Shown here: positions 9,279 through 30,854 of the stretch, piece after piece
Numbering within the stretch: position 1 is the first letter of the stretch
Layout: every line of letters starts with the position of its first letter
Assembly (NCBI GenBank): GCA_963665385.1
Contig: OY762213.1
Coordinates: 1,833,211-1,897,210 of the forward strand
Direction of reading: 5' to 3'
DNA: 64,000 nucleotides
Origin: Dehalococcoidia bacterium
GTDB taxonomy: Bacteria > Chloroflexota > Dehalococcoidia > UBA6926
The notes under the pieces: model-generated
The model's database searches: none
The model's input: the letters and a program-made list of their open reading frames with translations, nothing else
Told to the model about the DNA's origin: nothing
Position numbers and translations under genes: made by a program

Positions 9279-10403
9279 CTAGATATCCATCGCCTGTGCG
9301 ACGCGCTCGCGGTGGTAGTCGCCATCACCAAAGGAGACCTCCCATGCCTTGAGGCGTCGCGTGAACAGCTGCAGGTCGTGCTCCTGTGTGAAGCCAATGG
9401 CTCCGTGGCACTGGTGCGCCGTGGCCGCCACACGCTGCGCGGAATCACTGACCCACGCCTTCGCAGAGGAGACCTCGAGGTCGGAGGGCAGGCCCTCGCC
9501 CAGACGCCAGATTGCCTGGTACGTGATGAAGCGGGAGCCATCAACGTCCGTCGCCATGTTCGCGCAATAGTGCTGTATAGCCTGGAACGAGCCGATCGGC
9601 CGACCGAATTGCACGCGGTTCTTCACGTACTCAACGGTCATGTCCAGGACCTCTTGTAGCGCGCCGACCATCTGCGTGCAACGAAGCGCCGCGCCCTTCT
9701 GGAGCAACAGCCGCAGGACGGACCAGCCGTTGCCGGCCTCGCCGAGCACGTTGCCACCGGGAACGGAGACGTTGTTGAACGTCACTTCGCACTGGTTGTC
9801 CGTGGCGATGGTCTTGAGTTTATCGACGGAAACACCGTCGCTCTGAGCATCCACCAACAGCAGTGTGATGCCATCTTCGCCGGAGCCGCCGGTGCGGGCA
9901 GCGACCAGCAGGTAGTCGGCAGCATGAGCGTTTTCGACGAACATCTTTGTGCCATTCAGCGTGTAGCCATCACCCGATGCCGAAGCTTCCAGGTTGATGC
10001 CATTGGCATCGAGGCGAGAATACGGCTCAAGGATGGCCGTGGTCGCGATTAGGTCGCCCGCCGCGATTCGAGGCAGGAACTCCGCCTTCTGCGCGTCCGA
10101 ACCGGCATCAAGGATAGCGACGGTTGTGAGCGCAGTGTTGAAGAACGGGCCTGGCATGACACCATGGCCAACCTCTTCCAAGAGGATACCCAGATCAACC
10201 AGATTCTGGCCGGTGCCGCCGTGTTCCTCGGGAACAATCAGGCCGAGCCATCCAACCTGCGCGATCTTCTGCCACATATCGGCAGTGAATCCGCGGTCAT
10301 CCTCTTCCATGTCCCGGACGAACGTGCGCGGTGTCTCTTGCTCAATGAACTCTCGCGCCATCGACCGTAGCATTTCCTGGTCTTCAGTTAGTCCCAGATC
10401 CAT
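9279..10403 (-). CDS. Acyl-CoA dehydrogenase (canonical family member)
   Basis: About 374 aa from MDLGLTEDQEMLRSMAREF, with a GGAGGGGG RBS upstream. ACAD N-terminal, middle and C-terminal domains are all recognisable. The ORF track's upstream Met is probably spurious. Confidence 0.88.
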   Translation of the reverse strand: MDLGLTEDQEMLRSMAREFIEQETPRTFVRDMEEDDRGFTADMWQKIAQVGWLGLIVPEEHGGTGQNLVDLGILLEEVGHGVMPGPFFNTALTTVAILDAGSDAQKAEFLPRIAAGDLIATTAILEPYSRLDANGINLEASASGDGYTLNGTKMFVENAHAADYLLVAARTGGSGEDGITLLLVDAQSDGVSVDKLKTIATDNQCEVTFNNVSVPGGNVLGEAGNGWSVLRLLLQKGAALRCTQMVGALQEVLDMTVEYVKNRVQFGRPIGSFQAIQHYCANMATDVDGSRFITYQAIWRLGEGLPSDLEVSSAKAWVSDSAQRVAATAHQCHGAIGFTQEHDLQLFTRRLKAWEVSFGDGDYHRERVAQAMDI

Positions 10404-10481
10404 TTCCCCCTCCTGTCTTCCTTTACTCTTTCTTGTGCCCCCCACCAATGCGGGGCTTAGTCTGTGTTCTGTATTCCCTGT

Positions 10482-11699
10482 TTAGCGCGGGAGGCCAAGG
10501 CCTCGCTGCGCAATGATGTTCTTCTGGATCTCTCGCGTGCCGCCACCGATGCTGGTACCGATGCTCTGCCAACCGCGAGCGGGCAGGAAGCCTTCATCCG
10601 GCAGCGGGAAGCGGTCGCCGTTGCCCGGCAACAGGTTCCCGTAGCCGTCCATAATCTGCGAGAGGCCTCGGTAGATGTGCTGGAAAAGCTCATCACCGAA
10701 GAACTTGACCATCGAGGATTCCTTCTGCGGGATCATGCCCTCGCTCTGCATCCAGCCGACGCGGTAGCAGAGGGAGCGCAGCGTCTCCACGCGGACACGC
10801 CACTCGGCGAGGCGATGGCGGATTTCTGCACGAGCGATGGGCGTATCGCCGCCCTCGTCGCGCACCATGCCACACCAGTCAGTAAATTGTTCCAGTGTTC
10901 GGAGCAGCTGAGCCGGGCGGCCGATGTTGGAGCGCTCAAACGAGAGCGTGGTCATTGCGGCGTACCACCCGCGATTCTCTTCACCGATGATATTGTTCGC
11001 CGGTACGCGCCAGTTCTCCATGAACAGCTCATCCCAGCGGTGATTATTCGTGCCGTCCTTAATACCGCGAACCTGGATGCCCGGCATGTAGTTGCCGTCC
11101 TCATCCTTAAGCCGCGCCAGCAGGTACGTTATGCCCCGGTGCTTGGGCGCATCCGGGTCGGTTCGCACGAGGATGTGAATCCAATCGTTTCGATAAGTGC
11201 CCCAGATCTTTTGTCCGCTGACGACATAGTCGTCGCCATCACGGACGGCGCGAGTCTTGAGTCCGGCGAGGTCGGAACCGGCATCCGGCTCGGAGAACCC
11301 TTGCGAGAACTCGATGTCCGCATTCGCGATCTGTGGCAGGAATAGCTGCTTCTGCCATTCCTGTCCATGCACCATGAGCACGGGAGCGACAAGGCCGCCT
11401 CCCAGTGCTGCCGGCGCGTCGTGGTAGGACATAACCTCGCGATACGCAAGCTGCTTCTCAATAGAAGCGTCCTGGCCGCCGTACTCACTCGGCCAGTGCA
11501 TTGTGTACCAGCCCCTATTGACCAGCTTCTTGGCGAATTGGCGTGCAACCTCGTGACCGGCTTCGCGCTCTTCCTCGCTGCCGTGCCACCCGGCGAGGCC
11601 GCCTGTCAGGTCGTAACCGGGATTCTGCCATTCGCTCTTGACGAATTCTTCAGCCTCATCTCGGACGGCCTGCGCCTCTGCCGAAAATCGAAAGTCCAC
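10482..11699 (-). CDS. Acyl-CoA dehydrogenase-fold protein, MDFRF...IIAQRGLGLPR paralog (subfamily A)
   Basis: 405 aa. Starts MDFRFSAEAQ behind an AGGAGG RBS. The ACAD-like core has KESSMVKFFGDE and the protein ends GGGTREIQKNIIAQRGLGLPR. Confidence 0.85.
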   Translation of the reverse strand: MDFRFSAEAQAVRDEAEEFVKSEWQNPGYDLTGGLAGWHGSEEEREAGHEVARQFAKKLVNRGWYTMHWPSEYGGQDASIEKQLAYREVMSYHDAPAALGGGLVAPVLMVHGQEWQKQLFLPQIANADIEFSQGFSEPDAGSDLAGLKTRAVRDGDDYVVSGQKIWGTYRNDWIHILVRTDPDAPKHRGITYLLARLKDEDGNYMPGIQVRGIKDGTNNHRWDELFMENWRVPANNIIGEENRGWYAAMTTLSFERSNIGRPAQLLRTLEQFTDWCGMVRDEGGDTPIARAEIRHRLAEWRVRVETLRSLCYRVGWMQSEGMIPQKESSMVKFFGDELFQHIYRGLSQIMDGYGNLLPGNGDRFPLPDEGFLPARGWQSIGTSIGGGTREIQKNIIAQRGLGLPR

Positions 11700-11749
11700 T
11701 CCCCCCTCCTTTGCTCTACCCCTCTTGTGGAGTTTCCCGTGATTCGTCG

Positions 11750-12952
11750 TTAGCGCGGCAGGCCAAGTCCCCGCTGCGCAATAATCTGTCGCTGAACCTC
11801 AGTAGTGCCGCCGGCGACGCTGAGCGTACCCGACATGAATGCCCGGTTATTCAGGAATCCTTCGTTCGGCATGTCGATGCCCTCCTGCGTCGGCAGCAGA
11901 TTGCCGTACTCCTGGAGGCCACGGGCAAGAGTCTTCATCGTCTTCTGATACTGCACGTCCGCCCAGAGCTTGCTCATGGAGGATTCCTTCTGTGGGATCT
12001 CCCCTCTGCTCTGCATCCAGCCGACGCGGTAGGCAATCATACGCAGGGTCTCAATCTCGATGCGGAGATTCGCCATCTGGTGGCGGAACGGCGCGTCATC
12101 CAGCGGGCTGAAGCCACGTGTGGCCTTCAATTCGCGGACAAACGCGATGTATTCCTCGATTTGGCGCTGCATTGTAGCAGGGGCCTGAATGTTGGAGCGC
12201 TCAAAGGAGAGCGTCGTCATGGCCGTATACCATCCACGGTTTTCCTCACCGAGGATGTAACGGGCGGGAACGCGCCAGTTCTCCATGAATAGCTCATCCC
12301 AGCGATGGCGTCCGAGCGCATCAGGAATCTTTCGTACCTGTACACCCGGCATGAACTCACCGTCCGCGTCCTTTAGAGGTGCGAGGAGGTAGGTGATGCC
12401 ACGGTGCTTGGGGGCATCCGGGTCCGTCCGCACCAGGATGTGAATCCAAGGGTTGCGGTATGTACCCCAGATCTTCTGGCCGCTGATGATATAGTCATCG
12501 CCGTCACGGACGGCGCGTGTCTTGAGAGACCCGAGATCGGAACCCGCATCCGGCTCCGAAAAGCCCTGCGAGAACTCGAGGTCGGCGTTCGCGATACCCG
12601 GCAGAAATTCATCCTGCATCCACTTGGGAGCCGCCAGCATCAGGACTGGAGCAACCAGACCGCCGCCGAGCGATGCAGGCGCCCCGGCGTAGGACATGGC
12701 CTCACGGTAGGCCAGTTGCACCTCAATTGAGGCATCTTGCCCACCAAACTCACTGGGCCAGTGCATTGTCCACCAGCCTTTATTGACGAGCTTCTTCTCA
12801 AACTCGTTGACGGCTTCTTCAGCCTCGTCGACCTGGTGGTGCCAGTTGACGAGGATCTGCATATCCCAATTGCCGGGCTCCCACTCTTTGCGGGTGAATT
12901 CGATGGCGTCTTGCTGTATCTGCTGCGCCTCAGGCGTGAATCGGAAGTCCAT
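11750..12952 (-). CDS. Acyl-CoA dehydrogenase-fold paralog (subfamily A)
   Basis: 400 aa, MDFRFTPEAQ...AGGTTEVQRQIIAQRGLGLPR. It lies in tandem with the previous paralog. Confidence 0.85.
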   Translation of the reverse strand: MDFRFTPEAQQIQQDAIEFTRKEWEPGNWDMQILVNWHHQVDEAEEAVNEFEKKLVNKGWWTMHWPSEFGGQDASIEVQLAYREAMSYAGAPASLGGGLVAPVLMLAAPKWMQDEFLPGIANADLEFSQGFSEPDAGSDLGSLKTRAVRDGDDYIISGQKIWGTYRNPWIHILVRTDPDAPKHRGITYLLAPLKDADGEFMPGVQVRKIPDALGRHRWDELFMENWRVPARYILGEENRGWYTAMTTLSFERSNIQAPATMQRQIEEYIAFVRELKATRGFSPLDDAPFRHQMANLRIEIETLRMIAYRVGWMQSRGEIPQKESSMSKLWADVQYQKTMKTLARGLQEYGNLLPTQEGIDMPNEGFLNNRAFMSGTLSVAGGTTEVQRQIIAQRGLGLPR

Positions 12953-13072: not shown

Positions 13073-14257
13073 TCACGGCACAGGGCCTACGACGACGTAC
13101 TTCCTATCCACAGTCCTATCCGCAACCGGCAGCACCTGTACGACGACCCTGGTCAGCCCAACAACCTCGCCATTCGCGTCAAAGCTGTAGTTCTCACCAA
13201 TAGCGCCACTCCACGTGATCTCATACAGGCAGTCGCGAAAGCCGTCAGCGTCTCGATCATCGCCCGTCTGTCTCAGACACTCGGCAGCAATATAGATATC
13301 GTCATACGCAGATCCCAGGTGCCACGGCAACGTCACATAGTCATAGCGATCCCTAAAATCCGCGAGGACCTGCTGTGCCTTTTCGTTATCAGGGTCGAGG
13401 TCGGCCGTGATAGCTTTCACGCCTGTCGCGGCCTCGCCAGCAATCTCCAATGCTGTTGTCCCGACCGACACCGTTTCCGCGTATATCGGGCCCGTATAGC
13501 CGAGTTCCCTGGCTTGCTTCATGATTGAGCCTGCTGAGAATTCAGATTGGGGAGCTATATGTATGGCATCCGGGTTGGACTGGAAGAGCTTCGTCAGATG
13601 CACCCTAAAGTCAATGGTGTCCGACTGATAGCGCTCCGCAGCCGCAACTTGGCCGCCATGCATTTCGAATTGAGCAACTGAGGTCCGCCGAACGCCCTCC
13701 GCGTAGTCTGTGGTCTCCGTGATTGTTGCAAGGGTGCGGATTCCATCTTCCCATAAGGCATTGCCAGTAACAATTCCAACCTGTACATCGCTTATCTGCG
13801 TCCTGAATATATAGTCGCCGGCATTGGCAATATCAGGGTTGCTTGCGAGACCGGAGAAGAGAATCACGCCGTCAGCTTCTGCCAGGGGCGCAACGGCAAG
13901 CATGGCACCACTACATGAGGGGCCCAGGATGATCTTCATACCATCAGCGCGGGTGAGTTTGTTGTATGCGGCGATCGCATCCTGAGCAGCGCATTTTGAA
14001 TCCTCGACAACAAACTCGAGCGGGCGGCCATCAATTCCGCCTGTGGCATTAATCTCGTCGGCAGCCATCTGCTTTGCCTGGCTTGCCACCGTGCCGTACG
14101 TCTCACCGGGACCGGTCAGCGACTCCATAACACCAATCGTGAAAGGCTCCGCTTGCTGACCCTCATCTGTCGATGTACAAGCGAGAAGGGTAAGCGCCAG
14201 CGGAAGCAAAGAGAGAGCGACACTTATTTTCGCGAGCTTACCGATAGGGAGATTCAT
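13073..14257 (-). CDS. Branched-chain amino acid-type ABC transporter substrate-binding lipoprotein (periplasmic binding protein type I, LivJ-like)
   Basis: The likely start is MNLPIGK at 14257. A lipoprotein signal ends in the lipobox LLAC. GVMESLTGPGETYG...AADEINATGGIDGRPLEFVVEDSKC is typical of the Leu/Ile/Val-binding family. No permease or ATPase genes are adjacent. Confidence 0.82.
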   Translation of the reverse strand: MNLPIGKLAKISVALSLLPLALTLLACTSTDEGQQAEPFTIGVMESLTGPGETYGTVASQAKQMAADEINATGGIDGRPLEFVVEDSKCAAQDAIAAYNKLTRADGMKIILGPSCSGAMLAVAPLAEADGVILFSGLASNPDIANAGDYIFRTQISDVQVGIVTGNALWEDGIRTLATITETTDYAEGVRRTSVAQFEMHGGQVAAAERYQSDTIDFRVHLTKLFQSNPDAIHIAPQSEFSAGSIMKQARELGYTGPIYAETVSVGTTALEIAGEAATGVKAITADLDPDNEKAQQVLADFRDRYDYVTLPWHLGSAYDDIYIAAECLRQTGDDRDADGFRDCLYEITWSGAIGENYSFDANGEVVGLTRVVVQVLPVADRTVDRKYVVVGPVP

Positions 14258-14380
14258 TTGGGATTCGGTTTGCCTCTTGATGTTCGCTGTGTTCTTGATT
14301 TCTTTGGTGGCTTCCACATAGCAGAGTAACGCAGAGGCGACCAAATGGCCGCCCCTGCCCGTTTGTCCTGCTCGAAGTAG

Positions 14381-15592
14381 CTATCGCGGCAGACCCAAGC
14401 CACGCTGGGCGATGATGTTGGGGCCCAGGGCCAGTCCGCCACCACCGCCAAAGCCTGTCGTCATGGACAACGCGTAGTTCGTGCCGTACTTGCCATCACC
14501 CGGCGCGCGGCTCTCTCCCTTGAGCAGTGCCCGATATGGCCCAATCGCCTTGGCAAGCGCGGGCCAGAAAGTGAACTTGGCTGTCGCAAGCGCACGGTAG
14601 CCGGAGATTGCCCCCTCCGCCTGAGGCACTTCACCGTTCGCCTGCATCCACGCCACGCGATAGGCCAGCATCCGATCGGCCTCCAGCGTGATTCGTGCGT
14701 CGGCAAGGATGTGTCGAATCACATCATCCTTGAGCGGCGATTCGCCGTTGAACGTGATCCCGCGCATCTCTGCAAGGTAGCGATCCAGCACGCCGATAAG
14801 CCGGGCAGCACCGTCAATGCCTGTTCGCTCAAAGTTGAGCGTCGTCATCGCGGCGTACCACCCGCGGTTGACCTCGCCGATGATCTGGTGACGCGGCACA
14901 CGGACTTCGTCCATGAACACCTCGTTCCAGCGACGACGGCCCAGCATGTCATACAGCGGGCGCAGGGTGATGCCGGGCATCTGGTTTCCCTCATCATCCT
15001 TGAGCTGCATGGCCAGATACGTGATACCACGATGCTTGGGTGCTTCCGGATCCGTGCGCACAAGTACGTGGTACCAGTTGGCGAAGTGTGAACCGGACGA
15101 CCATATCTTCTGCCCGGTGACGACAAAATCGTCTCCGTCCTCCACACCGCGCGTCGTCAGCGATGCAAGGTCCGTACCCGCATTGGGCTCGGAGAAGCCC
15201 TGCGCCCAGTTGACGGTATTGTTCTGCATTCCGGTCAGGAAGTTCTCTTTCATCCAGTCCGTGCCGTGGATCATGATTGCCCCGGCGACGTTGGCCTGCG
15301 GCTGTGAGGCGGGAGCGTTGTGGTAGGCCATCTCCTCTGAATAAACGAGTTGGCGTGAGATGGGCGCGTCCTGCCCGCCGTATTCCTCCGGCCACGCCAT
15401 CGTCCACCAGCCCCGCTCAATCAGCTTCTTCTGGAAATCCTCTGCATGATCACGAGCGCCCGGATTATCGAAGTCATACGACCAGACGTTCATCGCGTAG
15501 GCGTCGTAATCCTTGGGGTCCCACTCCGTGGCAAGGAAGTCGCGCAGTTCGGTTCGAAAGGCCTCATCGGCGGGGTTAGTCGAGAAATCCAT
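14381..15592 (-). CDS. Acyl-CoA dehydrogenase-fold paralog (subfamily B, ends GGGGG...PNIIAQRGLGLPR)
   Basis: 403 aa, MDFSTNPADEAFRTELRDF...GFGGGGGLALGPNIIAQRGLGLPR. Confidence 0.85.
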   Translation of the reverse strand: MDFSTNPADEAFRTELRDFLATEWDPKDYDAYAMNVWSYDFDNPGARDHAEDFQKKLIERGWWTMAWPEEYGGQDAPISRQLVYSEEMAYHNAPASQPQANVAGAIMIHGTDWMKENFLTGMQNNTVNWAQGFSEPNAGTDLASLTTRGVEDGDDFVVTGQKIWSSGSHFANWYHVLVRTDPEAPKHRGITYLAMQLKDDEGNQMPGITLRPLYDMLGRRRWNEVFMDEVRVPRHQIIGEVNRGWYAAMTTLNFERTGIDGAARLIGVLDRYLAEMRGITFNGESPLKDDVIRHILADARITLEADRMLAYRVAWMQANGEVPQAEGAISGYRALATAKFTFWPALAKAIGPYRALLKGESRAPGDGKYGTNYALSMTTGFGGGGGLALGPNIIAQRGLGLPR

Positions 15593-16135: not shown

Positions 16136-16190
16136 GAGCCCATGTCCTTACTCCCACTGCCGACGCCCCAGTGTAGAGTAAGTAATCCTA

Positions 16191-18158
16191 TTAGTCAGTT
16201 CGAAACATGTACCGCAAGTCAAACAGACCGTAGAGTGTGGCCGTCATGTTCCCAAAGACATTGCGGACGGCGGAGATTCTCTCAGAGAGCGTCGTGTAGA
16301 TGATCGGCACGTTCTCTGCCGCTATTTCCTGCGCCTGGTGGTATAACGCTATACGCCTTTGCCGATCCAATTCCTTGCTGCCACTGATGTACAGCGCGTC
16401 GATTTCCGCCTCCCAGTCCGTAGCAGGTTCCAATTGGTTGGGGTGCCAGAGGTGTAAGCCTTCGCTGCTGTGCCAGACGTTTATTCCGCCATGGGGCTCT
16501 GTCCCGCCCGTCAAGCCGATGACAACAGTTTCCCAGTCGTAGGTGCTGGTTAGCTGTCCCACGATCTGCCCAAAATCGACCACAGTGTAGTTAACGTCCA
16601 ATCCGATGGCTTGCATTCCCTCGTGGGCGATTGAACCGACAGCCTGCCGGACGCTATTCCCCTCGTTCGTTGTTAGTGTAAAAGCTATATTCTCGCCGTC
16701 ATCATCTTCGCGGATGCCGTCGCCGTCCATATCGATCCAGCCCAGGCTGTCGAGGATCTCGTTCGCTTTGTCGAGGCTGTATTCGTACTGCCGGACGTTC
16801 GGATTGTGAAAATCGCCTGCAGCCGGGCTGATGGACGACCACTGTGGGTAGCCGAATCCGTGCTGCGCCTCATTGATGATTCGTTCCTTGTCGATGACGT
16901 GAGCGACGGCCTGCCGAAACTGAGTGTTGCTGAACCACTCATGCTTGCGAGGGTCCAGATACGGCTCACCGGTTTCAGGGTTTTGCCCGGGATTCACGTT
17001 GAATGCCAGGAAAGTCGTGCCAAAGGTTGGGCCGCGCCGATAGATCGTGAAGTTCTGGTCATCTTGCAAGGGCTCCAACTGCGCATATTCCTCGCCGAGT
17101 ACTCCATGAATATCGGTCTGACCGGACAAGAAGTAGGAGAGTTCATCCTCCAACTCGGGGACGATCAAGTGCACGACTCGATCCAGGTACGGGAGACCGT
17201 TGCCGTCGTTATCCGTCAGCCAATACCCAGGATTCCGCTCCATGACGACGCGCTCGCCCGGAATATAGGTTTCGATGGTGAACGGCCCGGTTCCGATGAT
17301 GTCTGAGGGGGCAGTGTTAATGTCCCAGGTCGAATTGAACGTGCCGTCATCCACATGCTTCTGAAGGATGTGCCTGGGATAGATGGCCGTGCCCATACTG
17401 CGCAGGAAGGGAGCGAACGGTTGCGGCAGGATGCACACAACTGTGTGCTCATCCACCGCCACGACGGTCATCGGGGATTCCCGCCATTCCCCCGTATCCT
17501 CATCCTGGAAACGGAAGTGGAAGGCGGGACGGGCGCTGGCAGGTATGTCGTGGTTATAGATGATGCTATTGAACGTAAACTCCACGTCGCGGGCCGTGAA
17601 CGGCCTATCATCGTGCCAGAAGACATCGTCACGCAAGTGGAATGTCCACGTCATCCCGTCCTCTGATGTCTCCCAGGACCTCGCCAACGACGGTTCGACG
17701 CGATCGGTCAGCCACGAGGTTTCAGTGAGTCCCTCAAAGAGATAGGACAGAACCCCGGACGAAGAGGCGTCACTCGCAATTGCCAGGTTGAACGTCAGCG
17801 GATCAGAAATCGTGGCAATTGTCAGATCTCCCCCATGGTCACCGATTGCGTATTGAAACTGCTCGGCATTGGCCTTGAGTAGATCGGTAACAGAAGGCCC
17901 CACGCTGACGTCCGGTTCGGTTAAGAGTGTCGGGGTTGCCGTTGGAGCCAGTGTTGGAATCACGATTGCCGTAGCAGATGGAATTGGAGTCACGATAGTG
18001 ACCGCCGGGACGGATGGCGAAGCATCCGAGGTGGGAGGCGTTGGCGTTGCGTCTTCACCACAGGCCACCAGGAGAAGTACCAGCGAAAGCGCCAAAATGA
18101 GTGGAATGCTGGTCAGTCTGACCGACGCAGCGCGCGTCCTTTCCCAAGCCATACGCAC
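16191..18158 (-). CDS. ABC transporter substrate-binding lipoprotein, family 5 (peptide/nickel, OppA/DppA-like)
   Basis: 655 aa. The signal plus lipobox is LLVACGED, followed by a Thr/Pro-rich linker. The family-5 SBP core includes PLTFNLAIASDASS...LFEGLTE. No cognate permease or ATPase is nearby. Confidence 0.85.
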   Translation of the reverse strand: MRMAWERTRAASVRLTSIPLILALSLVLLLVACGEDATPTPPTSDASPSVPAVTIVTPIPSATAIVIPTLAPTATPTLLTEPDVSVGPSVTDLLKANAEQFQYAIGDHGGDLTIATISDPLTFNLAIASDASSSGVLSYLFEGLTETSWLTDRVEPSLARSWETSEDGMTWTFHLRDDVFWHDDRPFTARDVEFTFNSIIYNHDIPASARPAFHFRFQDEDTGEWRESPMTVVAVDEHTVVCILPQPFAPFLRSMGTAIYPRHILQKHVDDGTFNSTWDINTAPSDIIGTGPFTIETYIPGERVVMERNPGYWLTDNDGNGLPYLDRVVHLIVPELEDELSYFLSGQTDIHGVLGEEYAQLEPLQDDQNFTIYRRGPTFGTTFLAFNVNPGQNPETGEPYLDPRKHEWFSNTQFRQAVAHVIDKERIINEAQHGFGYPQWSSISPAAGDFHNPNVRQYEYSLDKANEILDSLGWIDMDGDGIREDDDGENIAFTLTTNEGNSVRQAVGSIAHEGMQAIGLDVNYTVVDFGQIVGQLTSTYDWETVVIGLTGGTEPHGGINVWHSSEGLHLWHPNQLEPATDWEAEIDALYISGSKELDRQRRIALYHQAQEIAAENVPIIYTTLSERISAVRNVFGNMTATLYGLFDLRYMFRTD

Positions 18159-18299: not shown

Positions 18300-18342
18300 C
18301 ACAAAAATGAGACTCCCGCGCCCTTGTCAGGGCACGGGAGTG
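18300..18342 (-). terminator. Intrinsic terminator downstream of ACAD paralog 18382..19593
   Basis: On the minus strand, the hairpin CTCCCGTGCCCT-GACA-AGGGCGCGGGAG (plus-strand 18313-18340) is followed by TCTCATTTTTGTGG (plus-strand A-tract 18302-18310). Confidence 0.55.
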
Positions 18343-18381: not shown

Positions 18382-19593
18382 TTAGCGAGGGAGTCCTAGT
18401 CCTCGTTGGGCGATGATGTTCGGGCCCAGCAGGATGCCGCCGCCGCCGCCGAATCCCAGCGACAGTGAGATGGCGTTGTACGCGCCATAGTAGCCGTTAT
18501 GGGGCGCCCTGTCCTCGCCACGATTCAGGATGCCGTAGTCTCCGATGATTTTGGCGAGTGTCGGCCAGAAGTGCAGTTTCGCTGTCACCTGGTTGCGATA
18601 GCCTGAGATTGCGCCCTCATGCTGCGGCACATCGCCGCGGGCCTGCATCCATGCCACGCGATTGGCCAGCTGCCTGTCGGCCTCGATGGTGACACGCAGG
18701 TCAGCCAGCTTGTGGCGCACCAACGGGTCCTCCAGGATGGGTTGACCGTTGAACTTTGTATCCCTGAGCAGATCCATGAAACGCTCAAGGATGCCGATGT
18801 GGCGGACGGGGCCCTCCGTGCCTGTGCGCTCAAAGTTCAACGTGGTCATGGCGGCATACCAGCCGCGGTTGACCTCACCGAGCACGTACTTCTTGGGTAC
18901 GCGCACGCCGTCCATAAAGACCTCACACCAGCGCCAGCGCCCCATCATGTCGTACAGGGGACGGAGAGTGAGTCCGTCCGGTCGCGACCCCTGCTCGTCC
19001 TTCAAATTGACGAGCAGATATGTGATGCCGCGGTGCTTGGGTGCCTCCGGGTCAGTGCGGACAAGCACGTGATACCAGTCCGCGAGATGCGCGCCGGACG
19101 ACCATATCTTCTGGCCGGTGATGACGAAATCATCACCATCCTCAACAGCACGCGTCTGGAGAGAAGCGAGATCCGTGCCAGCGTTCGGCTCCGAGAAACC
19201 CTGCGCCCACTCGATGTCGCCGTTGGCCATGCGCGGCAGGAACTCATCCTTCACTTCATCGGAGGCATGGAACATGAGCGCGCCGGTGATGTTGGACTGC
19301 GGTGAGCCGCCCGGCGCGTTGGCGTATGCCAGTTCCTCCTTGTAGATGAACTGCTGGTTAACGGGATAGTCCGTGCCGCCAAATTCCTTTGGCCACGTCA
19401 TCGTGTACCAGCCCTTATCGACAAGCTTCTTCACGAAGTCCTTATCGTTATCGCGGGACTCCTGCATATCGAAGTCCCAGGAGCGGACGGCCATGCTGTG
19501 GCCGTCAAAGCCCTTGTTGTCCCAATTGCTATTGATGAAGTCGCGCACCTCTGCGCGAAACGCCTGATCCTTGGGATCCTCTCGAAAATCCAT
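18382..19593 (-). CDS. Acyl-CoA dehydrogenase-fold paralog (subfamily B)
   Basis: About 403 aa from MDFREDPKDQAFRAEVRDF at 19593, with a GGAGG RBS. It ends GFGGGGGILLGPNIIAQRGLGLPR. The ORF-track upstream extension is probably spurious. Confidence 0.85.
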   Translation of the reverse strand: MDFREDPKDQAFRAEVRDFINSNWDNKGFDGHSMAVRSWDFDMQESRDNDKDFVKKLVDKGWYTMTWPKEFGGTDYPVNQQFIYKEELAYANAPGGSPQSNITGALMFHASDEVKDEFLPRMANGDIEWAQGFSEPNAGTDLASLQTRAVEDGDDFVITGQKIWSSGAHLADWYHVLVRTDPEAPKHRGITYLLVNLKDEQGSRPDGLTLRPLYDMMGRWRWCEVFMDGVRVPKKYVLGEVNRGWYAAMTTLNFERTGTEGPVRHIGILERFMDLLRDTKFNGQPILEDPLVRHKLADLRVTIEADRQLANRVAWMQARGDVPQHEGAISGYRNQVTAKLHFWPTLAKIIGDYGILNRGEDRAPHNGYYGAYNAISLSLGFGGGGGILLGPNIIAQRGLGLPR

Positions 19594-19731
19594 CGAGCGC
19601 CTCCTGCCCCACCCATCGCCCGCGCGATGGCGTTCACCGCGCCAGCCCACGGGTCGGCGACGGTTATCGTTTCAAAGCTAGGCGCACTCTAGCACCGACA
19701 GTGGGCAGGGTAAAGGGGCGGCCAGTCCGCG

Positions 19732-21253: not shown

Positions 21254-21297
21254 TTAGGGTACAGCTACCGTGAAAGACGAAGCCAGTAGAGCTTTGT

Positions 21298-21990: not shown

Positions 21991-22028
21991 CTTTCCTCGC
22001 TGCCTATGAATTACCCTTAGTTGTACTC

Positions 22029-23228
22029 CTAGCGCGGCAGCCCCAGTCCCCGCTGCGCGATGATGTTGCGCTGGATCTCCTTGGTGCCGCCCCCGAATGT
22101 GCGCCCTGTCGAAAGGTAGTGGTTCGCGCCGATGTACCCGCCGAGTGGCGACCATCGAGCCGGCCCGCCGGGGATGAGCGTGCCCATGTCCTGCATCAGG
22201 CGCGCGGCGGTGCGGAAAATCCGCTGCGTCGCTTCACCGGCCCAGACGCGGGCAAGTGATCCCTCCGCCTGCGGCATCTCACCTTTCGTCTGCATCCACG
22301 CGACTCGGTATGCGAGCATTCGCCCCAGCTCGATATAGACCCGCAGGTCTGCCATCTCATTTCGCACGATGGGATTTGAGGTGAACGGCTCGCCGTTCAT
22401 GTTCGTCGTCCGCAAGTAGTCGAGAACCTTCTCCCACTCACGGAGCAGGGATGCCGGGATGTCCACCGAAGCGCGCTCGAACGACAGCGTCGTCATGGCG
22501 GCGTACCACCCTCGGTTGAGTTCACCAACAAGATTGCGCGCCGGGATGCGCACGTCCTCAAGGAACCACTCCGACCAGCGTCGGCGTCCCAGCATGTCAT
22601 ACAGCGGCCGCAGGGAGATGCCCGGGGACTCCATGTCAATGAGGAAATAGGAGATGCCGCGATGCTTGGCGGCGTCCGGGTCCGTCCGCACAAGGATGTG
22701 CCCCCACTTGGCGCGGGGGTGATGGGCCGTTGACGTCCATATCTTTTGACCGTTGATCACGTAGTCGTCGCCGTCCGCGACGGCTCGCGTGGTGAGGGAC
22801 CCCAAGTCGGAGCCCGCGTTCGGTTCGGAGAATCCTTGCGCGAATTCAAACTCGCCATTGGCGAGGCGCGGGATGAAATACTCCTTCTGCCAGTCTTGAC
22901 CGTGGATCATGAGGAGAGGCGCGACGAGGCCGCCGCCAAGCGCGGACGGCGCGCCCTGGTAGGCCATCTCCTCGCGATAGACTAACTGCCGCTCAATGCC
23001 GGCGTCCTGTCCGCCAAACTCCTTCGGCCAGTGCATGGTCCACCAACCCTTTTGGACCAGTTTCTGCTCGAATTGGTGTTGGAGTTCGAGGGCGGCGTTG
23101 TCGTCGAGGTGCCATGACGTGTTCATCGTGGAGACGAGGTCATAGCCGCGGTCGTCCCACTCATTCTGGACGAACTCGCGAACCTCCTGCCGGAAGGCCT
23201 CATCCTCAGTAGAGAACCTGAAATCCAT
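22029..23228 (-). CDS. Acyl-CoA dehydrogenase-fold paralog (subfamily A)
   Basis: 399 aa, MDFRFSTEDEAFRQEVREF...FGGGTKEIQRNIIAQRGLGLPR. Confidence 0.85.
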   Translation of the reverse strand: MDFRFSTEDEAFRQEVREFVQNEWDDRGYDLVSTMNTSWHLDDNAALELQHQFEQKLVQKGWWTMHWPKEFGGQDAGIERQLVYREEMAYQGAPSALGGGLVAPLLMIHGQDWQKEYFIPRLANGEFEFAQGFSEPNAGSDLGSLTTRAVADGDDYVINGQKIWTSTAHHPRAKWGHILVRTDPDAAKHRGISYFLIDMESPGISLRPLYDMLGRRRWSEWFLEDVRIPARNLVGELNRGWYAAMTTLSFERASVDIPASLLREWEKVLDYLRTTNMNGEPFTSNPIVRNEMADLRVYIELGRMLAYRVAWMQTKGEMPQAEGSLARVWAGEATQRIFRTAARLMQDMGTLIPGGPARWSPLGGYIGANHYLSTGRTFGGGTKEIQRNIIAQRGLGLPR

Positions 23229-23330: not shown

Positions 23331-23858
23331 TTAGCCGTCTTCAGTGGGAAAAGGGTCGTTCACGCTCCTCCGGCCTTGCAGTTCAGTTATCGAGACATCC
23401 GAGAAGGTCTTTCCGTTCCAGAGCGTCTTAACGTATGTCAGCACATCAATGATCTCTTGCCCCGTCAGCTTGTCTCTAAATGCTGGCATTCCGCTCTTGA
23501 AATCAGGCTGACTCGGAATTGCTCCGCCATCCCTCACGATCCGATATAGCAGTCCGTCGGAGTGGTGCCACGTGTGGCCGTCTCCATTCAGGGGTGGGGG
23601 GTTCAGCGTGCCGTCCGCGTTAGCGATTTGCCAGTCTGGATGACCCTGCCCCGCGGCCCCGTGGCACTCGGCGCAGTTTTCGGCGAACGTCTGCATTCCT
23701 GCCTGAATGAGAGTTGCGGAAGATGACTGCGTATCGCTATCCGGCGGGCCTTCCACAAAGCCGGTTGAGCAGCCCGCGCTGACGATGGCAAGAATAATCC
23801 CTACCAGAATTGAGCCCGTCGACATCCTTGCAGGAGTCCTGGGTCTTCTAGTCCACAC
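23331..23858 (-). CDS. Class I c-type cytochrome, probable lipoprotein
   Basis: A single heme-binding CAECHG (CxxCH). The N-terminal signal has Cys (ILAIVSAGCSTG) and there is a distal Met ligand region. The start may be the internal MSTGSIL at 23825. Confidence 0.75.
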   Translation of the reverse strand: MWTRRPRTPARMSTGSILVGIILAIVSAGCSTGFVEGPPDSDTQSSSATLIQAGMQTFAENCAECHGAAGQGHPDWQIANADGTLNPPPLNGDGHTWHHSDGLLYRIVRDGGAIPSQPDFKSGMPAFRDKLTGQEIIDVLTYVKTLWNGKTFSDVSITELQGRRSVNDPFPTEDG

Positions 23859-26379: not shown

Positions 26380-28068
26380 CTAACTGTCAAGCAAACCCTC
26401 TTGAGGCATCGTCCAGGGCGGCTGCATCTGGCCTCTGAACATCTTGGCGCGGGGCAGCGCCAAGTCGGTCAACGGCACGTCGATTACGACCGGCTCATTG
26501 CGCGACAGGGCCTCAGGCAACAGCGTTTCAAGGTCCTCCGGACTCGTCGCCCTTATTCCCACAGCTCCGAATGATTCCGCAAATTTGACGATGTCGGGGT
26601 TCTTCAGCTCAGTGCCGTACGCGCCGCCGAAGTAGTTATCGAGATCGCGCGCGACGTTGCCGTATGAGTCATCCCGGAAAACCACCGTGACGATGTTGAT
26701 GCCATACTGCACGGCGGTTGCCAACTCTGTCGCGTTGAACATGAATCCGCCGTCCCCGCTCACACACAGGACGGGCGCATCCGGACGCGCCACTTTGATG
26801 CCCATGGCCGTTGGGAACGCATACCCCAGGTTGAAGGAATAGCCGGAATCGATGTATGTCTTTGGGCGATTAACCCGGTAGTGCGACCGCGCGTAGTAGC
26901 CAAATTGGGTGACGTCCCAGGCAATAACGGTCTCCTCGGGCAAGGTATTCCACATCATTTCCATGATGGGATATTGCGGCTCTGTATCACGAATGTCGTA
27001 GTAGGCGATGAGCCTCTTCGTGACTTCGACGGCCTCTTCGGGGGATGGGCGGTCCGCCGCTCCCGCCTCCGCAAGCAGCGGCAGCAGCGCCTCAATCGTT
27101 GCGCCCGCGTCTCCGTGTAGGGGAATCGTATTCGACTGAACCCGAGTCAACTCTGAATCGTCGATATTGATATTGATTAGTGTGGAGGTTTCTCCGGCGG
27201 GATTGCCCATAGAGAAACGCGCTCCAATCCCGATGACGACATCGGCGGAGGCCAGGACCTCATAGATCTGGTTCATCTCATCCATCTCGGCGCGCGGGCC
27301 GAAGCACGAGCCGTACGAAAAGGGATGGTCGTCAGGAATCGTCCCTTTCCCGCCGCTCGACGTCACAACCGGGATATTCGTCGCCTCCGCAAGACGAACG
27401 AGCGCATCTTCCGCATTGGACTGCGCAACGCCTCCACCGGCGTAGATGATTGGCAGACGCGAATCCATCATCACCCGAACGGCCCTGCGCAGGTCATCCA
27501 CACTGGGCACAATATGTGACACCGGAGCGGGCTCGCGGAGGACAACATCTTCGCGCTCAACGCCCGTTTCCGGCGACATCTCGATGAGGACGGGTCGCGG
27601 GCGGCCTGTTCGCATCTGTCGAAATGCCTCGGTGACGGCATCCGGCGCCTCGCGAGGTCGCAGTACATGGCGACGCCACTTGGTTACAGGACGGACCACT
27701 TCGGCCTGATCAAGGACTTCATGAACCGCGCCGATTCCCTTGCCAATCTGTGCTCGGGGGATCTGCCCGACAATCGCAAGAATCGGCGAGGATCGAGCGT
27801 ATGCGGTTGCGAAGGCAGAGGCGGCGTTGTAGAGTCCCGCGCCTGGCACGAGGAGCACGACCCCAGGCTTACCCGATACACGAGCATAGCCGTCCGCCAT
27901 ATGGGTGGCTCCCTGCTCATGTCGGGTCGTTATCAGCCGAATGGATGGCTCATCTCGCAGGGCGGCCACGATCCCGGACATGTGAATGCCGGGAATCCCA
28001 AATACAACCTCGACGCCCTCTCGAACTAGAGATGCAACAAGAGCTTCGCCGCCGCTCATTACTGTCAT
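26380..28068 (-). CDS. Thiamine-pyrophosphate-dependent enzyme (acetolactate synthase large subunit / benzoylformate decarboxylase-like)
   Basis: 562 aa. The N-terminal TPP-pyrimidine domain reads EALVASLVREGVEVVFGIPG. A central domain follows, then the C-terminal TPP-binding GDGGFMFN motif. Confidence 0.85.
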   Translation of the reverse strand: MTVMSGGEALVASLVREGVEVVFGIPGIHMSGIVAALRDEPSIRLITTRHEQGATHMADGYARVSGKPGVVLLVPGAGLYNAASAFATAYARSSPILAIVGQIPRAQIGKGIGAVHEVLDQAEVVRPVTKWRRHVLRPREAPDAVTEAFRQMRTGRPRPVLIEMSPETGVEREDVVLREPAPVSHIVPSVDDLRRAVRVMMDSRLPIIYAGGGVAQSNAEDALVRLAEATNIPVVTSSGGKGTIPDDHPFSYGSCFGPRAEMDEMNQIYEVLASADVVIGIGARFSMGNPAGETSTLININIDDSELTRVQSNTIPLHGDAGATIEALLPLLAEAGAADRPSPEEAVEVTKRLIAYYDIRDTEPQYPIMEMMWNTLPEETVIAWDVTQFGYYARSHYRVNRPKTYIDSGYSFNLGYAFPTAMGIKVARPDAPVLCVSGDGGFMFNATELATAVQYGINIVTVVFRDDSYGNVARDLDNYFGGAYGTELKNPDIVKFAESFGAVGIRATSPEDLETLLPEALSRNEPVVIDVPLTDLALPRAKMFRGQMQPPWTMPQEGLLDS

Positions 28069-28237
28069 GGCTTGCCTCTCCCGACCATCCGGTTTCCCAT
28101 GGACGATTCAACGTGATCCCGGTTCACTTTGTCTGAATAACGTTGATATTTGCACACCTCGCCCGCAGTGGGCAAAAAGGAGATAGGGGCGGCTTGGCCG
28201 CCCCTATCGTTACGATTCCAGTTGAATGAGCCGGCAG

Positions 28238-29443
28238 CTACCGGGGAAGCCCGAGACCACGCTGAGCAATCAGGCCGGGCGCAAGAAGGATGCCACCCCC
28301 GCCCGCGTAGCCCGTCACCATGGACAGCGCGTAGTTCGTGCCGTACATGCCGTTGTCCGGGGAGCGCTTCTCGCCCTGGAGCAGGGCGCGGTAGGGCCCC
28401 ATGATGTGCGCCAGGGCAGGCCAGAAATTGAACTTCGCCATCATTGAGGAGTACAGGTTGGCGATCAGGCTCTCCGACTGCGGCACTTCGCCCTTGGACT
28501 GCAGCCAGATGAGGCGCAGGGAGAGCATGCGTCCGGTCTCAACCCGAATGCGCAGGTCTGCAAGCTGATGGCGGACGTGCGGATCGTTAAGCACCGGTTC
28601 GCCGTTGAACTTGAGGTCCTTCGCCATATCGAGGAACTTCTCCAGCACGGCGACATTTCTCGCGCCCGTGCCGCCCGCGCGCTCAAAGTTGAGCGTGGTC
28701 ATGGCGGCGTACCAGCCACGGTTGACCTCGCCGATGACCTGGCGCTTGGGAACTCGGACCTCATCCATGAAGACCTCATTCCAGCGGCGGCGGCCGAACA
28801 TGTCATAGAGCGGTCGGAGAGTAATTCCGGGCATCTGCGCGCCATCATCGTCCTTCAACTGCATGATCAGGTACGTGATGCCGCGATGCTTGGGCGCGGA
28901 CGGATCCGTGCGCGTTAGGACGTGATACCAGTTGGCGTAGTGGGAGCCGGATGACCAAATCTTCTGGCCGGTGACAACGAAATCATCACCGTCCTCGACA
29001 GCGCGGGTGGTCAAGCTGGCAAGGTCTGTTCCTGCGTTCGGCTCAGAGAACCCCTGCGCCCAGTCAATATCATTCGTGGCCATCTTGGGGAGAAACTCAT
29101 TCTTGATGGACTCTTCGGCGTGGTACATCATCGCGCCGGTGATGTTGGCGCTGGGGCTGCCCTGCGGAGCGCCCGCATAGGCAAGCTCGTCCGCATAGAT
29201 CACCTGCCGGGACAACGGAAGGCCCTGCCCGCCATACTCCTCCGGCCACGCCATCGTCCAGTAGCCCTTCTCAACCAGCTTCTTCTGGAACGCCTTTGCG
29301 TCCTCGCGGTACTCGGCACTGTCAAAGTCATAGCCGAAGACGTTGAGGTCCGTGTTGTAGTCCTTCGCGTCCCATTCGCGTCGCACAAATTCTCGAATTT
29401 CCTGTCGAAATGCCTCATCTTCCGGTGCAAACGTGAAATCCAT
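28238..29443 (-). CDS. Acyl-CoA dehydrogenase-fold paralog (subfamily B)
   Basis: About 401 aa from MDFTFAPEDEAFRQEIREF at 29443. It ends GYAGGGGILLAPGLIAQRGLGLPR. Confidence 0.85.
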   Translation of the reverse strand: MDFTFAPEDEAFRQEIREFVRREWDAKDYNTDLNVFGYDFDSAEYREDAKAFQKKLVEKGYWTMAWPEEYGGQGLPLSRQVIYADELAYAGAPQGSPSANITGAMMYHAEESIKNEFLPKMATNDIDWAQGFSEPNAGTDLASLTTRAVEDGDDFVVTGQKIWSSGSHYANWYHVLTRTDPSAPKHRGITYLIMQLKDDDGAQMPGITLRPLYDMFGRRRWNEVFMDEVRVPKRQVIGEVNRGWYAAMTTLNFERAGGTGARNVAVLEKFLDMAKDLKFNGEPVLNDPHVRHQLADLRIRVETGRMLSLRLIWLQSKGEVPQSESLIANLYSSMMAKFNFWPALAHIMGPYRALLQGEKRSPDNGMYGTNYALSMVTGYAGGGGILLAPGLIAQRGLGLPR

Positions 29444-29666
29444 TGTTGTCTGTCTCCCCACTGGCGCGCGTCCCAAAAGCGCCGTCACTTGCTAACCGCC
29501 TAATGCGAAATCCTACTTGTTCCCAATCGGTGTCAGCATACCACGCGAACCATCGTGAAACGTCAGCGGGAACGGGCGAATATGGGTCGGGCTAGACAGC
29601 GCGCTCACCTACAGATGCTCAGACTATTTGCGGTCTAGTTATCCAGGCGGCTGTGGGGGAGATGGG

Positions 29667-30854
29667 CTACCGCGGAAGGCCGAGCGCCCGCTGCGCGATG
29701 ATGTTCTTTTGCACTTCTCGCGTGCCGCCGCCGATGCTAAGTCCCGTTGCGAGGATGGAGTTCACACCCATGAATCGGCCCGCCGGCGACCATTTGTCCT
29801 CCGGGCGCAGCTGTCCGTAGTCATTTAAGATAGATGCGATTCCCCGGTAGATGCCCTGATGCAGCGTGTCTCCCCACAGCTTGGTCTGAGACGACTCCTT
29901 GACGGGAATTTCCCCTCGCGTCTGCATCCACGCCACTCGATAGGAGATCATGCGCGCCACTTCAATCTGCAGGCGCATGTCGGCCAGGATGTGCCTAACG
30001 CGCACGTCATCAAGCAGCGGCTGCCCGTTCACCCTGGCGTCCCGCGCGTAGTCTATGAACTCCTCAACGGTACGCAGCATCCGCGCGGGACCGCCGATGT
30101 TGGAACGCTCAAACGACAAGTGCGTCATAGTCGCGTACCAGCCGCGGTTAACCTCGCCAACCATGTTGCGCTTGGGCACACGAACCTCATCCATGAAGAC
30201 CTCGCTCCAGCGGCGGCGTCCCAACATGTCATACAACGGACGAAGGATGATGCCCGGGGATTTCATGTCGATGATGAGGTATGTCAGGCCGCGGTGTTTC
30301 GCCGCCTCGGGGTCCGTCCGGACAAGCGCCTGTCCGTAATCGGCCATCTCCGCCATGGACGTCCAAATCTTCTGGCCCGTGACGACGAAATCGTCGCCGT
30401 CTTCCACGGCCCGCGTCTGAACGCTCGCAAGGTCTGAGCCCGCGCCGGGCTCGGACAGCAATCGGCAGAACTCGATCTCGGCGGTGGCGTAATGGGGCAG
30501 TAAGTTGTCGCGGTGCCATTCATTGCCGTGGTACATCAGGACGGGTCCCACGAGGTCACTTGCGCCGGATGAGGGCGCGCCCCAATAGGCCATCTCCTCG
30601 CGGTAAATGAGCTGGCGGGAGATGGGCGCGCCCATTCCACCAAATTGTTCCGGCCAATGCAGTGTCCACCAACCCTTATCGGCCAGTTTGAGCTGCCATT
30701 CCTTGATGAGGTCTATCGCCTCGTGGGTGTGGAGATCATAAGACGCGATGGACGCGCCAACGGAGTCGTAGCCTTTGGGATCCCATTCGGCGTTGACGAA
30801 TTCCCTTACTTCCTGACGAAACGCTTCGTCTTCTTGAGAAAATCGGAAATCCAT
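29667..30854 (-). CDS. Acyl-CoA dehydrogenase-fold paralog (subfamily A)
   Basis: 395 aa, MDFRFSQEDEAFRQEVREF...IGGGTREVQKNIIAQRALGLPR. It lies in tandem with the subfamily B gene downstream. Confidence 0.85.
   Translation of the reverse strand: MDFRFSQEDEAFRQEVREFVNAEWDPKGYDSVGASIASYDLHTHEAIDLIKEWQLKLADKGWWTLHWPEQFGGMGAPISRQLIYREEMAYWGAPSSGASDLVGPVLMYHGNEWHRDNLLPHYATAEIEFCRLLSEPGAGSDLASVQTRAVEDGDDFVVTGQKIWTSMAEMADYGQALVRTDPEAAKHRGLTYLIIDMKSPGIILRPLYDMLGRRRWSEVFMDEVRVPKRNMVGEVNRGWYATMTHLSFERSNIGGPARMLRTVEEFIDYARDARVNGQPLLDDVRVRHILADMRLQIEVARMISYRVAWMQTRGEIPVKESSQTKLWGDTLHQGIYRGIASILNDYGQLRPEDKWSPAGRFMGVNSILATGLSIGGGTREVQKNIIAQRALGLPR

Follow-up and report, generated by a model that had tools for sequence, protein, structure and literature searches.

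A co-directional array of alpha-type acyl-CoA dehydrogenase paralogs closed by a candidate beta-type partner gene in a Dehalococcoidia genome

Why does a single 64-kb stretch of a Dehalococcoidia genome (Chloroflexota; contig OY762213.1; the whole stretch is called the window below) carry eight paralogs of the acyl-CoA dehydrogenase (ACAD) fold, 44-66% identical in pairwise comparison, and do these act alone, in the tandem pairs that some of them form, or with a partner encoded beside them? A preliminary description of the window had located the eight genes, divided them by their tails into subfamilies A and B and proposed that the tandem pairs encode heteromeric enzymes. All eight are present, and they as well as a ninth gene, 9279, match the Pfam Acyl-CoA_dh N, M and C domains above gathering scores, with only a partial match of the C-terminal domain in subfamily B. 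As argued below, we read the eight as alpha-type (large, catalytic) subunits and the ninth as a beta-type (small, non-catalytic) subunit of heteromeric ACADs which would share the binding of flavin adenine dinucleotide (FAD), including its adenosine diphosphate (ADP) end. Genes are named by their lower coordinate, and open reading frames are abbreviated ORFs.

29667..30854, minus strand: putative alpha-type ACAD subunit, A-type tail (IGGGTREVQKNIIAQRALGLPR), first gene of the co-directional array
28238..29443, minus strand: putative alpha-type ACAD subunit, subfamily B (YAGGGGILLAPGLIAQRGLGLPR), from Pfam domains and residue mapping
22029..23228, minus strand: putative alpha-type ACAD subunit, A-type tail (FGGGTKEIQRNIIAQRGLGLPR), from Pfam domains and residue mapping
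18382..19593, minus strand: putative alpha-type ACAD subunit, subfamily B, with an MDFRED start internal to ORF 18382-19650
14381..15592, minus strand: putative alpha-type ACAD subunit, subfamily B (FGGGGGLALGPNIIAQRGLGLPR), probably opening the last operon
11750..12952, minus strand: putative alpha-type ACAD subunit, A-type tail (VAGGTTEVQRQIIAQRGLGLPR), from Pfam domains and residue mapping
10482..11699, minus strand: putative alpha-type ACAD subunit, A-type tail, directly upstream of the beta gene
9279..10403, minus strand: candidate beta-type ACAD-fold subunit (non-catalytic, FAD-ADP-binding by sequence), last gene of the array
47413..48630, plus strand: eighth putative alpha-type subunit, A-type tail, solitary, about 37 kb from the beta gene

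The tails read (G/A)GGT.E(I/V)Q..IIAQRGLGLPR in the A genes (10482, 11750, 22029, 29667 and 47413) and (G/A)GGGG(L/I)(A/L)L(G/A)P..IAQRGLGLPR in the B genes (14381, 18382 and 28238), as they had been described before, except that 29667 ends in ALGLPR and 28238 has AGGGG. Neither end of the proteins is as distinctive as had been assumed: an MDF start is commonplace among ACADs (4l1f, for example, opens MDFNLTEDQ), and the ...LGLPR end, common to 162/163 family members, is also found in ChsE4 and Tcur3483. With a profile built from the eight paralogs, their own members score 681-702 bits, and in 79 related genomic loci family members reach at least 378 bits, every other ACAD at most 199 bits. 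Loci compared with the window, whether genomic or metagenomic, carry L-numbers (L001 etc.).

The best structural relatives are solved alpha chains. In phmmer searches, 10482 matched ChsE4 (4x28_A, 1.5e-54) and Tcur3483 (6wy8_B, 8e-48) best among PDB entries, and 14381 matched the same two in reverse order (6wy8_B, 1.2e-44; 4x28_A, 1.4e-42); canonical ACADs followed for both genes only at about 1e-29 to 1e-30, some 15-25 orders of magnitude behind. An AlphaFold2 model of 14381 (predicted local distance difference test, pLDDT, 90.3; predicted template-modelling score, pTM, 0.89) gave the same picture in Foldseek, where the top four matches were Tcur3483/ChsE4 chains with template-modelling (TM) scores of 0.79-0.86 and all of the best 50 PDB matches belonged to the ACAD family. 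The best NCBIfam family of the alpha copies is the PimC large subunit, matched over its full length (1-395 of 395) with 153-197 bits. The link to heteromeric steroid-type ACADs that had been proposed for the paralogs is thereby borne out for both subfamilies.

In human short-chain ACAD (SCAD), FAD is contacted by F152, L154, S155, T187, G160, S161 and E396 of the same monomer and by R297, Q365 and G369 of the adjacent monomer (PMC13027082). In ChsE-type enzymes the isoalloxazine and the Glu lie in alpha and the ADP-ribose is bound by beta (PMC11153573); the Glu is found in one subunit only, and activity requires the heterotetramer (PMC8399759). We therefore numbered residues on human medium-chain ACAD (MCAD; sequence identical to 1ege_A) and anchored the base position on this sequence and on its T255E/E376G double mutant (1egd), in which the base is relocated to T255, the position used by isovaleryl-CoA dehydrogenase (IVD) and long-chain ACAD (LCAD) (PMC11153573). 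Columns for the wider family were motif-anchored from 5lnx in sets of 160 non-redundant alpha and 24 beta sequences. The eight alpha copies map as follows:

MCAD T255 (IVD/LCAD base position, helix G): Glu in all eight alpha copies and in ChsE4
MCAD E376 (MCAD base position): Gly in all eight alpha copies and in ChsE4
MCAD T136, G141, S142, W166, T168 (same-subunit flavin contacts): S, G, S/T, W, T/S in the eight alpha copies and in ChsE4
MCAD R281 (neighbour-FAD contact): V/L/T/A/I in the eight alpha copies; T in ChsE4
MCAD Q349, G353 (neighbour-FAD contacts): variable in the eight alpha copies; E, T in ChsE4

At the same-subunit positions 29667 has S/G/S/W/S. The pattern extends to the whole non-redundant family aligned with hmmalign: the helix-G Glu is present in 160/160 alpha sequences and Arg at MCAD R281 in 0/160 (T, V, L, A and H are commonest there), the Gln at Q349 is variable, and G141, S142 and T168 are retained. 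The catalytic base of ChsE4 itself is, we assume, Glu247. The earlier statement that both subfamilies have Gly at the E376 position thus stands, but not that they differ there, since the Gly/Ala variation lies one residue away and, with Ala in 11750, 47413 and 28238, cuts across A and B. An IVD-type Glu and full FAD-binding residues in every copy, combined with unrelatedness to heteromeric clades, had been named as what would speak against heteromeric enzymes; the Glu is indeed in every copy, but the copies belong to the heteromeric clade. Because their top sequence and fold matches are solved alpha chains, the helix-G Glu is kept and the neighbour-FAD residues are lost, we firmly assign the eight paralogs, from their sequences, to the alpha-type subunits of the heteromeric ChsE4/FadE26-Tcur3483-PimC lineage. 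A dehydrogenase chemistry of these predicted subunits is well supported by the Glu-Arg on helix G and the intact flavin-ring site.

Gene 9279, which had been taken for a canonical ACAD, has the complementary set of residues. It carries F at MCAD E376 and, by alignment, G or Q at T255, with Glu at neither base position; its same-subunit flavin contacts are replaced by L/R/L/F/E (T136L, G141R, S142L, T168E), leaving a degenerate motif for its own FAD, and the neighbour-FAD residues R281, F284, G285 and Q349 are intact. The same holds across the beta family (n=24), where the helix-G Glu is found in 0/24 (Gly or Ala instead), R281 and Q349 are each found in 24/24, and G141, S142 and T168 are lost. 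This conserved family counts 25 ORFs at 345 bits or more in the genomic loci, with the next best at 136. NCBIfam matches of 9279 include the PimD small subunit (second-best, 198 bits) and IpdE2 (158 bits), both below cut-off. At the level of sequence features we firmly read 9279 as a beta-type subunit, a status which rests on these features and on synteny rather than on orthology, because the overall sequence of its family resembles canonical butyryl-CoA dehydrogenases more closely than it does ChsE5 or Tcur3481. Genes of the 9279 type, labelled "acyl-CoA dehydrogenase," are almost certainly incapable of catalysis alone.

The alpha and beta assignments are established by sequence; what follows on subunit assembly, on a shared beta and on substrates is our inference. 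Each alpha would bind the isoalloxazine end of FAD and carry the proton-abstracting Glu on helix G, having lost the residues that hold the ADP end of the neighbour's FAD, and 9279, with neither a base nor a site for a flavin of its own, retains precisely these neighbour-FAD contacts. The active enzymes would then contain two alpha, two beta and two FAD (alpha2beta2). Because a single beta gene closes a conserved co-directional array of seven alpha genes, this beta is probably the partner of several alpha paralogs, and the resulting isoenzyme set, with differing acyl pockets, may dehydrogenate bulky, branched or dicarboxylic acyl-CoAs. Such alpha2beta2 enzymes, in which several alpha paralogs share one beta, are in our judgement probably the best explanation of the locus.

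In the window every gene from 30854 down to 9279 lies on the minus strand, and the array runs 29667(A)-28238(B)-22029(A)-18382(B)-14381(B)-11750(A)-10482(A)-beta. Both tandem pairs that had been described are present, 11750/10482 separated by 50 nucleotides (nt) and 29667/28238 by 223 nt. A consensus scan found three terminator-like hairpins in this region, and a solute-binding lipoprotein gene stands between the alpha genes towards its end:

28182..28208, minus strand: terminator-like hairpin (12 bp, 9 GC, T-run) after 28238, from the consensus scan only
18312..18341, minus strand: terminator-like hairpin (13 bp) directly 3' of 18382, from the consensus scan only
13073..14344, minus strand: Peripla_BP_6 (LivJ-type) solute-binding lipoprotein, lipobox LLAC, inside the likely last operon
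9208..9235, minus strand: strong terminator-like hairpin (12 bp, 11 GC) after the beta gene, from the consensus scan only

The first hairpin probably ends a transcription unit made of 29667 and 28238, and the hairpins after 28238, 18382 and 9279 together make several transcription units likely. The last of these is likely 14381(B)-13073-11750(A)-10482(A)-9279(beta), because the gaps between these same-strand genes are short (in order ~36-123, 120, 50 and 78 nt) and no strong hairpin precedes that at 9235-9208. The beta gene would accordingly have 10482 as its immediate neighbour and 11750 and 14381 as operon-mates, but not 18382, 22029, 28238, 29667 or 47413. The lipoprotein gene 13073, previously called an orphan, sits inside this likely operon, a hint that an organic acid may be taken up and then dehydrogenated in a coupled process.

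At 10404-10484 on the minus strand the stop codon of 10482 is followed by the beta ORF in the same frame without a further stop (26 codons, then MDLGL). Three close relatives (L001, L004 and L027) share this layout and L002, L003 and L008 do not; it is probably a coincidence, although natural alpha-beta ACAD fusions (CasC) do exist.

The array order recurs in the closest metagenome-assembled genomes (89-100% identical; from sponge, coral and marine samples), although the intervening genes vary. In the related genome L016 four alpha genes are packed together, and a marine metagenome contig (L080) carries B-B-A-A-A-beta inside 9 kb. Since the order is kept in relatives and is compact in these two, the window holds one alpha array with a single terminal beta, in a loosened form. 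Among genomic cases the beta gene lies directly downstream of an alpha gene in 23 of 25, and it is always the next gene after orthologs of 10482. Metagenomic beta loci with enough upstream sequence (n=55) have alpha upstream in 44, namely one alpha gene in 32 loci, two in nine, three in two and five in one, with none in the remaining 11. Arrays that combine two to six alpha genes with a single beta were found repeatedly (L030, L034, L038, L070, L071, L080), including five- or six-alpha arrays in unrelated Dehalococcoidia (L038, L070, L071), so that one to six alpha genes followed by one beta is a recurring pattern across Chloroflexota, in which 1:1 with adjacent partners is commonest.

Several observations weigh against alpha2beta2 enzymes with a shared beta. 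Seven alpha genes to one beta gene is a stoichiometric mismatch unless beta is made in excess; a transcriptional link to beta is predicted only for 10482, 11750 and 14381, given the hairpins after 28238 and 18382, and 47413 lies on the other strand, 37 kb from beta. Adjacency of alpha and beta is evidently not obligatory, because a beta is missing from the first 3 kb or more downstream in 39 of the 63 informative loci centred on an alpha gene, and 11 of the 55 metagenomic beta genes have no alpha upstream; alpha might thus work without beta. Further beta genes elsewhere in the genome are possible, thiolase, hydratase and CoA-ligase genes were not found in the window, and the beta-family profile scores butyryl-CoA dehydrogenases (248-263 bits) above Tcur3481 (201 bits) and ChsE5 (181 bits). 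If the alpha paralogs were instead self-sufficient homomers that hold FAD by other contacts, with 9279 serving its immediate neighbour(s) only, the many alpha genes without a nearby beta (the 39 loci as well as 47413, whose orthologs in L005 and L006 are also solitary), the separate transcription units of the window and the high alpha:beta gene ratio would all be accounted for. Yet the Arg that contacts the neighbour's FAD is missing from all 160 alpha sequences whether beta is in the locus or not, so that lone alpha genes have not regained it, activity of the closest solved relatives is described as dependent on the heterotetramer (PMC8399759), and the alpha array with one terminal beta is conserved and compact in relatives; we consider homomers unlikely. 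Were each alpha served by a dedicated beta encoded elsewhere in the genome, 1:1 in trans and without sharing, the beta genes that lack an upstream alpha would find an explanation, and non-adjacent partners are known from ScdC1C2 of Comamonas testosteroni, which is ORF28/30 (PMC6678751). This seems to us distinctly improbable, as the window has one beta-type gene in 64 kb with eight alpha genes, and each large contig appears once among the best 120 beta matches (down to 58% identity): a 151-kb contig with at least six alpha clusters and a 1.96-Mb contig with at least four alpha each have a single beta among these matches. Where 1:1 is the commonest arrangement, moreover, the partners are adjacent.

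That the tandem pairs 11750+10482 (A/A) and 28238+29667 (B/A) are themselves heteromers with one non-catalytic member, as originally proposed, is hardly credible. The members of each pair are adjacent on the same strand and come from a heteromeric ACAD lineage, and each pair joins a Gly copy to an Ala copy at the site that matches Tcur3483 G363A (6wy8 versus 6wy9), but the proposal is contradicted at residue level: in both members, as in all eight copies, the helix-G Glu is present together with the same-subunit FAD residues, R281 and Q349 are missing, and a gene with exactly the beta features, 9279, adjoins 10482. Subfamily B in particular could be a non-redox or regulatory derivative in which FAD is no longer properly bound, since the equivalents of MCAD T378 and Q380 are lost (Q380 being the SCAD FAD contact E396), the Pfam match of its C-domain is partial and the Gly-rich loop has lower model confidence. 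This we hold to be very unlikely in view of the catalytic Glu-Arg pair and the S-E-P-x-x-G-T-D and K-I-W-S-S motifs that are kept, of the purifying selection on its members (ratio of non-synonymous to synonymous substitution rates, dN/dS, 0.025-0.07), and of its conservation across about 50 clusters, which show four variants of the tail and include Tara Oceans data. An extended form of the shared-beta arrangement, a combinatorial system of marine and sponge-associated Dehalococcoidia in which one non-catalytic beta scaffold supplies the ADP-binding half-site to about a dozen diverged alpha subunits and the Gly-rich, hydrophobic segment that in B takes the place of T-x-E-I-Q, at the start of a flavin-proximal helix, repositions flavin or substrate, is possible but in our view doubtful.

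By sequence, then, subfamily B represents a derived branch of the alpha subunits, remodelled on the flavin side into a Gly-rich segment. This segment replaces the T-x-E-(I/V)-Q beside the flavin, and in the model of 14381 it forms a lower-confidence coil leading into the last helix. The lost Q380 corresponds to a ribityl/pyrophosphate contact in SCAD, where E396 is listed as an FAD residue (PMC13027082). B-type tails make up about 50 clusters at 90% identity, including the Tara Oceans sequences, and come in the variants GFGGGGG, GYAGGGG, ESGGGGG and GFAGGGGLWLAP. When 151 sequences (<90% identity) were joined in a neighbour-joining tree with 50 bootstraps and with ChsE4 and Tcur3483 as the root, the eight genes of the window fell into one 31-member clade with 100% support, made up only of close marine or sponge Dehalococcoidia. 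Within it, subfamily B is monophyletic (100% bootstrap) and nested in a paraphyletic A, and 10482 groups with 11750 and 47413, again with 100% support. Purifying selection on all nine genes is strong, with dN/dS of 0.02-0.07 at a synonymous divergence (dS) of 0.6-1.9 relative to orthologs that are 89-96% identical (29667, 0.035-0.042; 28238, 0.034-0.068; 11750, ~0.02; 47413, ~0.04; 9279, 0.03-0.05); for 22029 the value is ~0.04 against close orthologs and 0.096 against L016. Because the paralogs are old and their order is kept in related genomes, they are diverged copies and not a recent expansion. The same clade includes further paralog types from related genomes (L007, L021), so that the genome of the window probably encodes more alpha subunits than these eight, twelve or more genome-wide.

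Such extra alpha-type pairs were seen in L007, L009, L011, L012 and L066 and in L021, L022 and L028, with no beta in their flanks and with the tails ...GLGGGTTE(V/I)QRNLIAQRGLGLPR, ...FGHGTKEIQRNIVATRGLGLPR and ...WMNRFAGGGREIQLNIIAQRGLGLPR. Some large alpha arrays of other Dehalococcoidia (L031, L038, L041, L052) contain a third ACAD type, with tails such as ...SIYLGTSEVHRTLVSG, which scores 150-199 bits against the alpha profile and is by score neither alpha-like nor beta-like.

The closest characterised system for the A copies is ChsE4-ChsE5 (FadE26-FadE27) of Mycobacterium tuberculosis (4X28), their best PDB match and among the top three for B. ChsE4 has the helix-G Glu in N/S-x-E-R, Gly at E376, G-G-G-T-x-E-V-Q, the ...LGLPR end and the A-P motif of helix E, and its gene is followed by that of the beta subunit, as in the window. 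It differs in that identity is only 30-35%, the organism belongs to another phylum, the window has no steroid-catabolic context, the genes are 1:1 as opposed to eight alpha and one beta, and 9279 is not specifically ChsE5-like. Tcur3481-Tcur3483 of Thermomonospora curvata (6WY8/6WY9) is the top match of subfamily B in both sequence and fold; Tcur3483 is an alpha subunit with the Glu and an ...LGMPR end, and its flavin-side Gly (G363A in the variant 6WY9) matches the Gly/Ala site of the window genes. It is, however, part of a bile-acid side-chain enzyme and keeps V-N-E-V-L, so that the loss of T-x-E-x-Q in B has no counterpart there. PimC and PimD (TIGR03204/TIGR03203) are the best NCBIfam family for alpha and the second-best for 9279, but with 153-198 bits against equivalog cut-offs of 623.85 and 652.7 the window genes are relatives and not orthologs. 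The pim cluster, we assume, likewise includes LivJ-type binding proteins, as does the window operon. IVD and LCAD share with the alpha copies the Glu at the MCAD T255 position and the Gly at E376, and LCAD also the helix-E proline, but both form homotetramers and, like canonical ACADs, would be expected to retain the contacts to the neighbour's FAD, whereas the window alpha copies have lost them. The M. tuberculosis region fadE30-fadE33 (IpdE1-IpdE2, FadE31/32/33) provides a precedent for more than two ACAD-subunit genes in a cluster and for non-adjacent partners, although with three or four genes instead of eight alpha and one beta; the pairings in this region reportedly include FadE31/32/33.

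Which substrates the enzymes might take is hinted at by the helix-E A-P motif, which is kept in all eight alpha copies and whose effect in LCAD and ChsE4 is an unwound helix and a wider pocket (PMC11153573). The characterised relatives have steroid side chains or pimeloyl-CoA as substrates. In the neighbourhood of 25 diverse alpha/beta loci (106 ORFs) the commonest families were SCP-x/Ltp-type thiolases (10) and DUF35/ChsH2-C (4), followed by enoyl-CoA hydratases (3) and family III CoA-transferases (2), which fits beta-oxidation of bulky acyl-CoAs and is not steroid-specific. None of these SCP-x/Ltp thiolase, DUF35/ChsH2, hydratase and CoA-transferase families is found in the window itself, and neither are steroid-catabolic genes (ChsH/Ltp2, Kst, Hsa etc.) anywhere in its 64 kb; with no steroid-catabolic context, steroid specificity finds no support. 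Apart from the ACAD genes the window holds the two binding lipoproteins, a cytochrome c, a thiamine-diphosphate (ThDP) enzyme, a protein with leucine-rich repeats (LRR) and fn3 modules, and housekeeping genes. The second lipoprotein lies between two B genes:

16191..18158, minus strand: SBP_bac_5 (Opp/Dpp-type) solute-binding lipoprotein, lipobox LVAC

It is missing from the compact arrays L016 and L080. The earlier observation that the two binding proteins stand without transporter genes is confirmed, with no ATP-binding cassette (ABC) permease or ATPase gene among the window ORFs of at least 200 aa. A gene for a DnaJ-domain protein and an unassigned ORF (20195-22155, minus strand) separate 22029 from 18382; they are also present in L018 and missing in L014, where the gap is ~490 nt, and look like a strain-level insertion. 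Between 28238 and 22029 lie the ThDP enzyme (26380-28068, minus strand), which is acetolactate-synthase-like with PRK08266 as its best NCBIfam match, and the small cytochrome c (23331-23858, minus strand), with an N-terminal hydrophobic segment and Cys (SAGC); both are missing from the compact arrays. The LRR/fn3 protein (24018-25970, minus strand; 650 aa) combines a hydrophobic segment at its N-terminus with three fn3/ChitinaseA_N-like modules and a leucine-rich repeat block, and eukaryote-like repeat proteins of this type are common in sponge symbionts. Upstream of 47413 (plus strand), towards a DEAD-box helicase gene (minus strand), ~880 nt (46534-47412) contain no recognised gene or Rfam match, and the 692-aa ORF listed as starting at 46552 is artefactual, arising because an in-frame stop is missing. 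Genes for an N6/N4 DNA methylase (48703-49584, minus strand) and for a DndB-like (DNA-sulfur-modification-associated) protein (61253-62521, plus strand) may have defence or modification functions. Gene orientation flips from minus to plus at ~37.8-38.6 kb, where the cumulative GC skew has its minimum; a replication origin near 38 kb was rejected, as there is no DnaA-box cluster and the skew simply tracks the gene strand. No Rfam families, tRNA or rRNA were found in the window.

To our knowledge, heteromeric alpha2beta2 ACADs are known mainly from actinobacterial and proteobacterial steroid and bile-acid catabolism and from PimCD, always as 1:1 gene pairs. We found no literature linking heterotetrameric ACADs to Chloroflexota, and predicted steroid degraders have been reported only in Actinobacteria and Proteobacteria (PMC6678751). 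The main text of two foundational SAR202 genome papers reports expansions of monooxygenases, CoA-transferases, short-chain dehydrogenases, enolases and dioxygenases; large ACAD families, which the preliminary description had called a hallmark of SAR202, were not found there. What is new here is that a predicted split of one FAD site between two subunits appears to be widespread in Chloroflexota, and that its catalytic half has radiated to at least eight old paralogs in one marine and sponge-associated lineage, with one partner gene at the end of the array. The eight alpha copies probably widen the range of bulky acyl-CoAs that can be oxidised. If beta is shared, this would be a simple modular way of multiplying substrate range, and ACADs would join the paralog families that are thought to enable attack on recalcitrant dissolved organic matter or on sterol-like lipids of the host. 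One shared partner with many specificity subunits would then represent a new organisation of acyl-CoA dehydrogenases.

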